Assembly: GCA_964607415.1 (NCBI GenBank)
Contig: CAZSKK010000002.1
Coordinates: 224,585 to 288,584, forward strand
Reading direction: 5' to 3'
Length of the DNA: 64,000 bases
DNA from: an uncultured Candidatus Saccharibacteria bacterium
Lineage (GTDB): Bacteria; Patescibacteriota; Dojkabacteria; J137
The notes under the pieces are model-generated. The model was given only the letters and a program-made list of their open reading frames with translations, was not told the origin of the DNA and ran no database searches. Below, piece after piece: positions 42,337 through 62,930 of the stretch. Both the position numbers and the translations under genes were made by a program. The stretch's first letter is position 1, and every line of letters begins with the position of its first letter.

Positions 42337-43569
42337 ATGAATAAATTAATTACCACCTTGGCAATAGACACATCTTGTGATGAAACTTCTGTAGCTGTAG
42401 TTAGAAACTTTACAGTTCTTTCAAACGTACTTCCTACTCAAATTGAATTTCACAAAAAATACGGTGGAGTAATGCCATCAGTTGCAAAATTAGCTCATAA
42501 AGAAAGAATTGATAATGTTGTGATTGAAGCTATCAAAAAAGCAAAAGTTGATTTTTCAGACATAGATGCAATTGCAGTAACAATTGGGCCAGGCCTTGCA
42601 ATTGCTTTGGAAGTTGGAATTGAAAAAGCAAAAGAACTAGCAAGCAAATACAATAAGCCTTTGATTACAGTTAATCACATGGAAGGACACCTGCTTTCGG
42701 CATTCGCCGAAAGGAAAGAAGCCTCACCCACCAGCCTAAAGGCTGGTCCCCCCTCTCCTGCCAGGAGAAGGGTTGAGGGAGAAGCTTCCTTTCCAAATCT
42801 GGGAATGCTGGTTTCCGGAAATCATACTGAAATTATTTTAATTAAAAACTTTGGCGAATATCAAAAAATTGGCGAAACGCTTGATGATTCGTGTGGAGAA
42901 GCGTATGACAAATGCGGCAGAATGTTGGGCCTTGGTTATCCTGCAGGCCCTGTTATTTCCGAATTTGCAAAACAAAACCGAAAAAATATGGAGCTTGGAA
43001 TTGCAAATATAAATAATTCGGTACATGCTTGGGCAAAAAATAAAAAAACTAAAGCCTACTACTCTCTTCCAGTTAGCATGGCAAAGTCTAATGATTTGAA
43101 CTTTAGCTATTCTGGATTAAAAACCGCATTTAAACAGCTTGTAACAAATGTAAGTGGTCAAAATATTTCGTACGAAGATCAACTTTCAGGTTCAATTAAT
43201 TTAAATAAAGAACAAATTATGGACCTTTGTGTAATTTTTGAACATGCAGCGTTAAGCCAGATTTCAATAAAGTTATCCAAGGCAATAAAACAATATAAAC
43301 CAAATGAAGTGTGGCTTGGTGGAGGTGTTGTTGCCAGCACAAGATTAAGATCAATTGTTAGAAGTTTATGCAAAGATAATAACGTGATTTTAAGGGTTGC
43401 AAATACAAAAAAACTTTTTGGTGATAATGCTGCAATGATTGGTGTAGCAGCGAATACCAGAATTATGCTTCAAGATTCAAGAATTAAGAATTTTGAACAT
43501 TCTCCGGCATACGGGATTTTTTTAAAAGACTTTCATTTAGTGGATAGAGATCCAAATCTTTCGCTTTAG
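42337..43569 (+). CDS. tsaD: tRNA N6-adenosine threonylcarbamoyltransferase TsaD, with about 21-aa in-frame insertion
   Basis: TLAIDTSCDETSVAVV, VNHMEGHLLS, VSGNHT, GYPAGP; 410 aa versus about 340 typical. Confidence 0.9.
   Translation: MNKLITTLAIDTSCDETSVAVVRNFTVLSNVLPTQIEFHKKYGGVMPSVAKLAHKERIDNVVIEAIKKAKVDFSDIDAIAVTIGPGLAIALEVGIEKAKELASKYNKPLITVNHMEGHLLSAFAERKEASPTSLKAGPPSPARRRVEGEASFPNLGMLVSGNHTEIILIKNFGEYQKIGETLDDSCGEAYDKCGRMLGLGYPAGPVISEFAKQNRKNMELGIANINNSVHAWAKNKKTKAYYSLPVSMAKSNDLNFSYSGLKTAFKQLVTNVSGQNISYEDQLSGSINLNKEQIMDLCVIFEHAALSQISIKLSKAIKQYKPNEVWLGGGVVASTRLRSIVRSLCKDNNVILRVANTKKLFGDNAAMIGVAANTRIMLQDSRIKNFEHSPAYGIFLKDFHLVDRDPNLSL
42721..42783. repeat. Family B GC-rich nested-hairpin element inserted in frame inside tsaD (encodes ASPTSLKAGPPSPARRRVEGE)
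   Basis: CCAGCC-TAAA-GGCTGG and CCTCTCCTG/CAGGAGAAGG hairpins, outer CCTCACCC/GGGTTGAGG, flanked by ggaaagaagc/gcttcctttcc; GC-rich island in AT-rich gene. Confidence 0.7.
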
Positions 43570-43581
43570 CTTCACGAAAAT

Positions 43582-43597
43582 TTGTATTGCAATACAA
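43582..43597. repeat. Family D palindrome TTGTATTGCAATACAA (copy 1; copy 2 at 59605-59620)
   Basis: AATTTGTATTGnnATACAATG shared 20/22 between two sites; hairpin after tsaD. Confidence 0.6.
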
Positions 43598-47678: not shown

Positions 47679-47808
47679 GGTGAAGAGCTTAAGAGCTAAT
47701 GAGGTTTTCAGATTTCCTCTCCCTTAGGGAGAGGACTAAGGTGAGGGCTTAAGAGTCGATGTTTTTTATAACCTCACCCTCCCCTCTCCTTAAATGGAGA
47801 GGGATTTG
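47677..47808. repeat. Family B GC-rich elements, two tandem units
   Basis: Unit 1 GGTGAAGAGCTTAAGAG...CCTCTCCC-TTA-GGGAGAGG; unit 2 GGTGAGGGCTTAAGAG...CCTCACCC..CCCTCTCC-TTAAAT-GGAGAGGG. Confidence 0.75.
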
Positions 47809-54992: not shown

Positions 54993-55300
54993 TGGTATAA
55001 TTAACAAAACGTAGAAGGAGCAAAGTACATTTTTAAGGTGACAAAAGAGATTTCGTGTTAGCTGAAAACGAAACGTACTTAAAAATCGAAACTACACTCC
55101 AGAGAAAAGAGCAGAACAGCTAAAGGGCTGTAGAGGTAAAGAGCATGCTCTATCACTCTTAACCTCTATACCTCTAAAGCTCAGTAAACCTCTTCGGGTA
55201 AGCCCGTTATTGCTGTCATCAAGAGTCTAGTATCTTCACTAGAAATTGAGGTGGTACCGCTGAGAAATCAGTCCTCATAAATATAAATTCGAAATCAAAA
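54993..55300 (+). promoter_or_regulatory. T-box-like leader upstream of tyrS, with extended -10 promoter TGgTATAAT at 54993-55001
   Basis: AAATTGAGGTGGTACCGCTGAG (55243-55264) matches T-box consensus AAUUAGGGUGGUACCGCG; UGGU bulge would pair the ACCA end of a tRNA with discriminator A (assumed for tRNA-Tyr); UAC (Tyr) codon followed by A at 55025-55028 in stem-I-like region. Confidence 0.5.
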
Positions 55301-56585: not shown

Positions 56586-56605
56586 TTCTAAAAATCAAAA
56601 GTGTA

Positions 56606-56641
56606 GAAAGCGCGGCGTAAAACGTCGCGCTTTCTTTTTTG
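56606..56641 (+). terminator. Rho-independent terminator of tyrS (GAAAGCGCGGCG-TAAAA-CGTCGCGCTTTC + T-run); also family C palindrome copy 1
   Basis: GC-rich perfect stem followed by TTTTTTG. Confidence 0.8.
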
Positions 56642-59604: not shown

Positions 59605-59620
59605 TTGTATTGGGATACAA
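59605..59620. repeat. Family D palindrome TTGTATTGGGATACAA (copy 2), 35 nt upstream of the RAYT gene
   Basis: Matches 43582-43597 context AATTTGTATTGnnATACAATG. Confidence 0.6.
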
Positions 59621-59654
59621 TGAAATTTTGAAGTAAATTGTGTAAATTCTTCTC

Positions 59655-60218
59655 ATGGGAAATTTGCACACTCATCAAAAAAGGTTTTACGTTGATCAGT
59701 TAGTTTACTTTGTTACAATAAAAACCCTTAATAATTTTCCTTATTTTAAATACAATTTTCTTGCTGATTTATTTATAGCTGAGCTTACACTTTGTCAAGA
59801 GATTAAAAATTTTGAACTTTATGCGTTTAATGTTCTCTACGATCATGTTCATATTTTGTTAAAACCATCCAAAGAATCAAATATTTCGGTAATAATAAAG
59901 TCTCTAAAAGAAAATTTTTCCCGTGATGCGAACAGGATTATTTTAAAAAAGCCAATTGAAGCCGCGGCGTCGACGTCGCGGCTTCACATCGATAAAAATA
60001 TAAATGAAGTGATCAAACAAAAACAGCTTTTTATGCCTAAGTTTGCATGGCAAAAATCATTTCATGATCATTACATTCGGAACTCTAAAGATTTGAAAAC
60101 CCGTTATAATTATACGGTTTTTAATCATTTGAAGCATTCAGAAGATAGGGCTTACACATCAGACTATAAATTTACATCTCTAAATTATTTTGAAATAATT
60201 GACGAAGCGTATTTTTAG
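59655..60218 (+). CDS. REP-associated tyrosine transposase (RAYT) / IS200-like Y1 HuH transposase homolog
   Basis: HuH motif LYDHVHILL; C-terminal WQKSFHDHYIRNSKDLKTRYNYTVFNHLKH (WQ..F.DH.IR..........Y...NP-type catalytic Tyr region); 187 aa; no terminal IS structure seen. Confidence 0.65.
   Translation: MGNLHTHQKRFYVDQLVYFVTIKTLNNFPYFKYNFLADLFIAELTLCQEIKNFELYAFNVLYDHVHILLKPSKESNISVIIKSLKENFSRDANRIILKKPIEAAASTSRLHIDKNINEVIKQKQLFMPKFAWQKSFHDHYIRNSKDLKTRYNYTVFNHLKHSEDRAYTSDYKFTSLNYFEIIDEAYF
59958..59985. repeat. Family C GC-rich palindrome GAAGCCGCGGCG-TCGA-CGTCGCGGCTTC inside the RAYT ORF (encodes EAAASTSRLH)
   Basis: 11/12 complementary arms; GC island in AT-rich gene; related to 56606-56634. 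Confidence 0.7.
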
Positions 60219-62130: not shown

Positions 62131-62191
62131 ACCCCTCTTCTATTCTCCCCTTTAATCAAAGGGGAGATGTCGAACGTAGTGAGACAGAGGG
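62131..62191. repeat. Family B GC-rich nested hairpin (CCCTCT...CTCCCCTTT-AATC-AAAGGGGAG...AGAGGG)
   Basis: Perfect 9-bp inner hairpin 62145-62166 enclosed by CCCTCT/AGAGGG; between RIO-kinase stop and truB start. Confidence 0.7.
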
Positions 62192-62192
62192 A

Positions 62193-62930
62193 TTAGTTAA
62201 AAGGTACATGCCTAGTAAGAGACAAAGGCGTTGTTCCATGCATAAAATTATCTTTAATCTCCAAAAGCTCTTTGTAATCAATATCAATAAACTTTGAAAA
62301 GAATTTGTAAATATTATCCAAATCTTTTTGTAGTTTTTCTGATGCAAATGGGTTTTTGAAATCTAACATTTGTGGAAAATCAATTGCATAGGCAGAATTC
62401 TCCCACCAAAGGATATTGTATTCAGAAAAATCTCCGTGCACGTAGCCAAGTTTTGTAAGAGCACGTAAAAATTCAAGTGTGTCTAGATAAGCTTTTTTAA
62501 GCTGACTTTTTGATAGGTTTAAATCTACAAGTCTTAAAGCTGGAGCACTTTCTTCTCCTAAAAACTCCATTAAAATTGCATCTTCAATAAAGTCATAAAC
62601 TTTGGGAACTTGAAGATTATATTCATTTAGTTTTTTTAAAATAGAGTACTCTCTATAAGTCCAAAAACTCCGGGTAAACATTTTGCCTTTACGTGTTTTC
62701 TTACGCATTGCCCTTGTAGTAGGTGTATCTTTCATTACATTAAGATCCAGATATTCAAACCTTGATGAATACTTTTGATTTACTTTATAGATTTTTAAGG
62801 CGAGCAACAATGAATCCATTTTTACTAAATGGACTTCTGCTTCTTTTCCTGTTTTTAATTGTCTTATATATTCAAGGTTGTAATTTTTTTCTTTGAACTG
62901 ATTTAGAACCAACGATAAGTTGTTTAGCAT
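62193..62930 (-). CDS. RIO-type atypical serine protein kinase
   Basis: GKEAEVHLV...LALKIYKV (ATP-binding), YVHGDFSEYNILW (catalytic loop), AIDFPQ (metal-binding) parallel RIO1 motifs. Confidence 0.65.
   Translation of the reverse strand: MLNNLSLVLNQFKEKNYNLEYIRQLKTGKEAEVHLVKMDSLLLALKIYKVNQKYSSRFEYLDLNVMKDTPTTRAMRKKTRKGKMFTRSFWTYREYSILKKLNEYNLQVPKVYDFIEDAILMEFLGEESAPALRLVDLNLSKSQLKKAYLDTLEFLRALTKLGYVHGDFSEYNILWWENSAYAIDFPQMLDFKNPFASEKLQKDLDNIYKFFSKFIDIDYKELLEIKDNFMHGTTPLSLTRHVPFN

Follow-up and report, generated by a model that had tools for sequence, protein, structure and literature searches.

The gene at positions 59655–60218 (+ strand) of a 64-kb window, the whole stretch of 64,000 nucleotides analyzed here from contig CAZSKK010000002.1 (assembly GCA_964607415.1), encodes a genuine class 2 HuH/Y1 enzyme of the RAYT type (REP-associated tyrosine transposase, also TnpA_REP, where REP is a repetitive extragenic palindrome), and it carries a 28-nt palindrome in frame within its own coding sequence. 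We consider it probable that the protein is a RAYT-type HuH/Y1 nuclease-ligase whose cognate repeat is a 28-nt "double-foot" REP, with one copy inside the enzyme's own gene and another serving as the terminator of tyrS. An initial annotation of the window had proposed a RAYT/REP maintenance system at this locus. Its observations were largely real and its interpretation largely right, with the exception of a hairpin upstream of the gene and of a demonstrated maintenance system.

The open reading frame (ORF) has an ATG start, encodes 187 aa, and lies between rlmN and obg. The HuH motif and C-terminal tyrosine region noted in the initial annotation are both present. The HuH motif reads Y-D-H64-V-H66-I-L, with codons H64-V65-H66 at 59844–59852 (+) placed on strand β3 by an AlphaFold2 model. 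The C-terminal segment W132-Q133-K-S-F-H-D138-H139-Y-I-R142 is followed by Y151-N-Y153; the W132-Q133...D138-H139..R142 stretch, delimited by alignment to 4er8, is encoded at 60048–60080 (+), and the codon of Y153, the predicted catalytic tyrosine on helix αD, is at 60111–60113 (+). H64 and H66 are invariant in alignments A1–A3 (H64 also in A4), the W132-Q133...R142 stretch is conserved in A2–A4, and Y153 is invariant in every alignment made (A1–A4). The Y motif, Y153-T-V-F-N157-H158, is of the class 2 YxxxN[P] type with the N kept and the P changed to H, as compared to the N-P present in many members of the homolog clade.

Profile searches agree with the proposed RAYT assignment. Pfam Y1_Tnp (PF01797) matched at 31.6 bits (cutoff 23), the NCBIfam REP_Tyr_transpos equivalog matched at 80.0 bits, exactly on its threshold of 80, and the NCBIfam IS200 equivalog reached 21 bits against a cutoff of 55. 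E. coli TnpA_REP (4ER8, 4e-5) is the only solved structure with significant similarity by sequence. Aligned to it, Y153 corresponds to the catalytic Y115, and W132, Q133, D138, H139 and R142 correspond to W94, Q95, E100, H101 and R104, the residues that touch the REP 5' tetranucleotide in E. coli (PMC6006769). The AlphaFold2 model, built from 82 homologs (predicted local distance difference test, pLDDT, 87.9), has the order β1, αA, β2, β3 (HuH), helix 77–97, loop 98–112, helix 113–122, β4 and αD, with the HuH strand at residues 64–70 and Y153 in helix 144–160 (αD). Loop 98–112 is poorly ordered in the model. The best PDB match found by Foldseek is again 4er8_A (E 2e-7, TM 0.63/0.71), followed by the ISDra2, IS608 and IS200 transposases; the top 30 matches are all Y1 transposases. 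Homologs are named "REP element-mobilizing transposase RayT" by JGI.

The 28-bp GC palindrome reported inside this ORF is real. It occupies 59958–59985 (+) as GAAGCCGCGGCG-TCGA-CGTCGCGGCTTC, with 13 Watson-Crick pairs and a single G.T pair between its two 14-nt arms; an extension to 59957–59986 is possible. Codon 102 begins at 59958, and the palindrome encodes E102–L110 and the first base of H111. None of 100 shuffled controls gave any match like it. Folded as DNA, the palindrome has an energy of −15.3 kcal/mol (z −4.3), and as RNA −24.5 kcal/mol (z −5.8); it is one of seven GC-rich hairpins in a window of 32% G+C. The encoded peptide (E-A-A-A-S-T-S-R-L) falls in the low-confidence loop between helix 77–97 and helix 113–122, where pLDDT block means of 58–67 over residues 101–120 fit a modeled surface loop that the fold would tolerate. 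Since the in-gene palindrome is not followed by a T-run, we rejected a role for it in intrinsic termination or attenuation.

The claimed kinship with the tyrS terminator palindrome also holds. The extragenic copy (56605–56641, +), located 3 kb upstream of the RAYT gene, has a 14-bp stem, a 3-nt loop and a T-run; its hairpin (56605–56635), AGAAAGCGCGGCGT-AAA-ACGTCGCGCTTTCT, was picked up by the terminator scan. The shared core GCGGCGT..ACGTCGC occurs at exactly 2 sites in the window, one in the ORF and one at tyrS (expected 0.00), and these are also the only window matches to the family frame GAA[GA][GC]CG...CG[GC][CT]TTC. The arms of the two copies are 11/13 identical and both copies carry the same G.T pair, and the two differences between them are compensated on the opposite arm (G-C to A-T, C-G to G-C). 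Judging by its sequence, the second REP member of the window is co-opted as, or doubles as, the tyrS terminator. A GTAG happens to precede the tyrS copy and overlaps its stem. At gathering thresholds, Rfam gave no match at either hairpin; its matches across the whole window were limited to a T-box leader and a single tRNA. A metagenome scan for the window REP core (CGCGGCGT-N0-6-ACGTCGCG) returned 120 matches, all but one on contigs of approximately 50–80% G+C, which is attributable to chance and uninformative.

The initial annotation had also placed the enzyme next to several palindromic repeat families; we find one REP family of two members together with ordinary terminator-like hairpins. 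Among its candidates was a REP-like hairpin upstream of the gene, TTGTATTGGGATACAA (59605–59620). This sequence has a 6-bp stem with −3.0 kcal/mol (z −1.9), and 11 of 200 shuffles fold equally well. Its near-matches are within chance, with 5 at three or fewer mismatches as compared to 1.2 expected, and 3 of 100 shuffles reach 5. The copy placed at 43582 differs at 2 positions. The upstream hairpin was rejected as a REP; it does not resemble the REP family of the window or of the related loci.

An exhaustive HMMER search identified 735 relatives of the protein (an earlier word-index protein search had found only 4), and palindromes were compared in the DNA of 80 related loci plus three earlier ones, whose hosts are metagenome-assembled genomes (MAGs) of the Candidate Phyla Radiation (CPR), Cloacimonadota, Spirochaetota and the like. 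Many of the HMMER relatives are split into two matched stretches at query residue 96–101, indicating that length varies exactly at the palindrome site. Inserts in the homologs repeatedly read E-G-[ED]-x4-R-L-[RQHPL], the in-frame translation of the family consensus GAAGGCGA-N12-TCGCCTTC, and most homolog palindromes fit this 28-nt frame. A zero-loop perfect or near-perfect palindrome lies in the HuH-W spacer of 39/40 genes with a spacer of at least 60 aa, where 2.5 would be expected from the background density of palindromes in these loci, and in 0/31 genes with a short spacer (39–55 aa). The outer arm is conserved as GAAGGCG, sometimes as GCAGGCG, GAAAGCG or GTAAGCG, and the lineage-specific centre is always compensated.

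The palindrome is read as E-G-[DE]-x4-R-L in 27 loci, in the frame K-A-R-S-R-D-L-A-F in about 9 Peribacteria-type loci, and in the third frame in 2. Between pairs of genes, 25–28 of its 28 positions are identical, as compared to 42–86% identity in the 150 nt on either side. The 14-nt in-gene arm recurs extragenically with at most one mismatch in 13/38 loci, mostly 0.3–1.7 kb away (3.6% of cross-locus control pairs, those from loci with related arms). Extragenic copies were found in loci L011 (+600 nt), L026 (+263), L029 (−454), L030 (both sides), L033 (several across the locus, at least six in 9 kb) and L047 (two), and both arms match exactly in L011, L026, L029 and L030. The position of the palindrome in the linker ranges from 35 to 75 aa after HuH, and some genes hold 2–4 tandem or partial copies. 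Because it is frame-independent, better conserved than its flanks and copied in non-coding DNA, the conserved object is the DNA and not the peptide. Because it is family-wide, frame-independent and recurs beside the genes, the palindrome is an in-gene member of a REP family and, on the evidence of sequence comparison, the cognate REP of the enzyme rather than a coding quirk. Comparison thus supports the cognate REP of the RAYT/REP system proposed initially; its active maintenance is not shown, given two copies in 70 kb.

The related loci yielded further observations on the repeats. Many REPs form the middle of a longer perfect dyad with outer arms of 5–12 nt that differ from copy to copy (aaaaatt-REP-aattttt and gctgtgt-REP-acacagc, for example), far above chance. 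Such dyads were found at L047:9868–9909, L047:12036–12077, L038:2832–2875, L019:3886–3927, L024:10596–10637 and L034:1247–1288, and around in-gene copies at L024:10280–10331, L041:888–933 and L028:10045–10086. They suggest that REPs inserted into the centre or loop of hairpins already present (terminators, for example) or that template switching extended the palindrome outward. In a Bacteroidota homolog (L043:10319–10427) four in-frame tandem half-REP-like units (GGGGACGTGGCGCCCATGCAACCTGCA) with a 27-nt period, the full palindrome being last, translate as the repeat (A/P)GDVAPMQ; homologs P0080, P0133, P0028, L039 and L052 contain 2–3 REP-derived peptide repeats. At L007:10919–10946 a 28-nt palindrome of the GAAGGCG type, GAAGGCGTGACGTCGACGTCGTGCCTTC, shares its central GACGTCGACGTC with the window REP and lies inside a neighboring 262-aa ORF on the opposite strand, so that REPs of this family also occur in other protein-coding genes. 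The complete 1.34-Mb Peregrinibacteria genome CP064978.1 (L026, L029) encodes two RAYT paralogs that differ in their REP variant (centres GAGGATAA/TTATCCTC and GCGAATGA/TCATTCGC). Beside each of the two genes lies an extragenic copy identical to its own REP, with a T-run after it. The genome is well suited to testing the specificity between enzyme and repeat.

We propose that the cognate repeat would be the 28-nt double-foot palindrome, with a GAAG/CTTC foot, a conserved G+C-rich lower stem and a lineage-specific centre. The in-gene copy sits in the linker between the long post-HuH helix and the W-Q strand, and its translation would be a short disordered loop tolerated by the fold. On the model of E. 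coli TnpA_REP and of IS608, the REP hairpin in single-stranded DNA would be bound by the enzyme, which would cut and rejoin the DNA beside it, with H64 and H66 binding the metal and Y153 acting as the nucleophile through a 5'-phosphotyrosine intermediate. The proposed cleavage and rejoining are modeled on the known biochemistry of these two enzymes and on PMC6006769; enzymatic activity and the choice of this substrate are what we infer from them. What is maintained in the gene would be the DNA and not the peptide it encodes: the enzyme may repeatedly reset or re-insert the copy along with nearby extragenic ones, or the hairpin itself may be under selection. Repeated insertion or resetting near the enzyme's own gene, with selection keeping the in-frame outcomes, is favored because, across the clade, the position is variable, tandem copies occur and in-gene copies are identical to neighboring ones. 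A role in regulation or as a "master copy" is still compatible with the strong conservation of the palindrome and with its very stable stem in the mRNA. As a speculative suggestion of our own, template-switch repair of quasi-palindromes would keep the arms complementary without selection on structure.

A tentative extension of this proposal is that an in-gene REP is obligatory in the clade, as a protected "master" or self-targeted copy or as an autoregulatory hairpin; we regard this as possible but doubtful. It would explain the presence of the palindrome in 39/40 genes across several phyla, a near-perfect palindrome amid diverging codons, the indifference to frame and the co-variation with extragenic copies, and it would account as well for the retention of the in-gene copy in a CPR genome that has hardly any REPs.

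The alternatives differ in what they take the palindrome to be. It could be a cis-regulatory hairpin, acting in the mRNA or in single-stranded DNA of the gene, over and above a substrate copy that is tolerated or reset. The stem would then throttle translation, attract an RNase or be bound by the RAYT itself, so that a potentially genotoxic enzyme is autoregulated. The stability of the RNA stem speaks for such a role, as do a palindrome present in nearly every clade member, in any frame and well above the flanking codons in conservation, and a G.T pair on the sense strand of both window copies, which makes the sense-strand hairpin the better one. However, its position in the linker is variable, the tandem and partial copies in some genes resemble repeated insertion more than a fixed regulatory element, and the inner arm tracks the local extragenic REPs, as a substrate would; we think that such regulation is somewhat unlikely. 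A relic state is less likely still. In it the RAYT would be inactive, the in-gene palindrome a fossil insertion and the tyrS hairpin a survivor as a terminator only. Such a state is conceivable given a REP population so much smaller than that of L033, with none flanking the gene, an outer arm that reads GAAGCCG and not the consensus GAAGGCG, the G.T pair, and N-H in place of N-P in the Y motif. Against it, the ORF is intact with all catalytic and REP-contact residues kept, the identical protein is found on contigs assembled from several separate sequencing runs, and 13/14 pairs are preserved in a genome of 32% G+C, where an unconstrained GC-rich 28-mer should erode.

Two other explanations have very little probability. 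If the peptide E-G-x5-R-L were the conserved unit, the DNA palindrome would be a by-product of coding, and R109 and L110 are indeed at least 90% conserved in the 82-sequence alignment (consensus "EG....RL"). The frame data effectively refute this explanation, since in the Peribacteria-type genes another frame is used and the palindrome is still perfect. Identical palindromes also stand in non-coding DNA beside the genes, the loop is predicted to be poorly ordered, and R-L is followed by R, Q, H, P or L, which have in common only the first-base C needed for pairing. A related idea, that the REP-encoded peptide recognizes the REP as a self-referential code, was rejected because the same palindrome is read in different frames. 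An autonomous IS200/IS605 insertion sequence (IS) with this gene as its transposase is, if anything, less probable still. The TnpA proteins of IS608 and ISDra2 share the HuH/Y1 fold with the window protein, and presumably the same chemistry on single-stranded hairpin DNA; our model superimposes on both, and the Pfam Y1_Tnp match is common ground. However, IS200/IS605 elements are mobile and multi-copy, have subterminal hairpins, often carry tnpB and have a YxxxQ motif, none of which is seen here. The tyrosine motif is YxxxN, and the IS200 equivalog score is far below its cutoff. The gene is single-copy and devoid of IS terminal structure, as the initial annotation had it: tblastn finds one copy in the window, the gene table of the window lists no tnpB or IS ends near it, and its own ends have no subterminal hairpins. 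Its GC is equal to that of its neighbors, which are housekeeping genes (tyrS with its T-box leader, pyrD, rlmN, obg, truB and a RIO1-like kinase).

Among characterized enzymes, E. coli TnpA_REP (RayT/YafM, 4ER8, subclass 2.2) shares with the window protein the HuH motif, the tyrosine on αD and the W-Q/E(D)-H-R residues, and it is likewise the product of a single-copy chromosomal gene associated with REP hairpins. It lacks the linker insert of approximately 25–30 aa. REPs flank the E. coli gene (a REPtron) but do not occur within it, whereas the window gene has one inside and none flanking. The REPs of E. coli number in the hundreds, and they form imperfect hairpins that contain a loop and bulges and leave a 5' GTAG unpaired.

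Rickettsia palindromic elements (RPEs) of approximately 100–150 bp insert in frame into many unrelated genes and are not known to have a cognate enzyme. As with RPEs, a short palindromic repeat lies here in frame in a coding gene and would be translated as a surface loop; the difference is that the host gene here is that of the putative enzyme of the repeat itself.

Quentin, Siguier, Chandler and Fichant (2018) split the TnpA_Y1 proteins into subclasses, and in subclass 2.4, which is RAYT Group 4 of Bertels et al. 2017 (PMC5581495), they found REPs inserted within the tnpA_REP genes, "a remarkable and unique feature" (PMC6006769). An in-frame REP inside tnpA_REP was therefore already described in 2018, and the arrangement is not new. 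Subclass 2.4 proteins have a median HuH-Y distance of 88 aa and a median length of 194 aa, the motifs NH[IFV]H and YIxNNP, and a variable insert between β3 and αC, and their "double-foot" REPs in Table S1 are 28-nt perfect palindromes such as GTAGGGGCGAACGGCCGTTCGCCCCTAC (PMC6006769). The window protein resembles them as a class 2 HuH/Y1 enzyme with the W-Q motif and an in-gene REP, with 89 aa from H64 to Y153 and a length of 187 aa. The 4+10/10+4 layout of GTAGGGGCGAACGGCCGTTCGCCCCTAC is that of GAAGGCGACGTTGGCCAACGTCGCCTTC in the present loci, and low gene copy number per genome and modest REP abundance are shared as well. By motifs and layout, rather than by subclass profiles, we liken the window protein to subclass 2.4, the closest to it in architecture, and regard it as a class 2 RAYT that would work like members of that subclass.

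Several points weigh against our interpretation. The HuH motif is DHVH (DH[VFI]H in the clade) and not NH[IFV]H, and the Y motif is YTVFNH, ending in N-H and not N-P, as compared to YIxNNP in subclass 2.4. The foot is GAAG/CTTC (with variants GCAG and GTAA) and not GT[AG]G/C[TC]AC, and a GAAGGCG stem is found in no REP of Table S1 of Quentin et al. 2018 (PMC6006769). The insert follows the post-HuH helix (residues 98–136, the αC-β4 linker), in contrast to the insert between β3 and αC in subclass 2.4, where we infer the correspondence of the published helix names (PMC6006769) to our model. The REP_Tyr_transpos score lies right at its cutoff. There are only two REP copies in 70.2 kb (the window plus 6.2 kb added by locus L001), none of them outside the gene within 1 kb of it, and the REPtron arrangement of relatives is absent here. 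As a further difference from subclass 2.4, the hosts of the present loci, CPR, Cloacimonadota and Spirochaetota MAGs, are outside the genome set of that study, and those of subclass 2.4 are Cyanobacteria, Bacteroidetes and Chloroflexi.

Domesticated transposases that co-evolve with populations of short repeats are best known from RAYT/REP pairs. Where the enzyme gene nearly always holds its own repeat, as in this clade, there is a clean natural experiment on the matching of enzyme and repeat and on whether the enzyme acts on its own gene. With a minimal repeat population, two copies in 70 kb of which one is the tyrS terminator, each copy can be tracked individually. The features that distinguish the present system are the GAAG foot, the CPR host and the very small REP population. 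The present loci add CPR and other uncultured phyla to the known range, together with a GAAG-foot REP variant and data on frame independence and conservation; with the arrangement already in the literature, no new principle is involved.

The initial annotation had called a RAYT/REP pair notable in a CPR-like genome. The CPR assignment is supported, but the in-frame REP as such had precedent (PMC6006769). The label "CPR-like" is justified because the closest named Obg homologs are from Candidatus Dojkabacteria; the closest RAYT homologs are from Peribacteria, Peregrinibacteria, Gracilibacteria and Patescibacteria MAGs. Synteny around obg is not conserved in two related genomes, and the comparison therefore gives no insertion or deletion history for the RAYT gene. 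Assembly GCA_034680565.1 (L007, L089; contigs JAXOUH010022715.1 and JAXOUH010009758.1), with contig numbers exceeding 22,000, appears to hold Dojkabacteria-like genomes inside a larger sample. It includes a 1.12-Mb contig with an Obg 58% identical to that of the window, as well as, on a contig of 157 kb, a RAYT homolog. The in-gene palindrome of this homolog has become ATGAGGTTGGCCAACCTCAT by drift, and its compensated twin, ATGAGGTTAGCTAACCTCAT, lies approximately 400 bp upstream.

The T-box leader 5' of tyrS (55003–55279; Rfam RF00230, 99.5 bits) gives the tyrS transcription unit a T-box riboswitch at its 5' end and a REP-derived terminator at its 3' end. The RIO1-like protein kinase gene (62193–62930, −) adjoins truB and obg, and its product matched the NCBIfam PA4780-family RIO1-like profile with 122 bits, under the cutoff. 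Hairpins of a second, unrelated set, whose stems are polypyrimidine/polypurine (CCCTCTCC...GGAGAGGG and variants), are located at 42750–42772, 47715–47735, 47782–47803 and 62144–62167 of the window, and a similar "ccctctcc" string is present 3' of a REP in the Dojkabacteria locus L031. These hairpins may be a lineage-typical form of terminator or a second repeat family.

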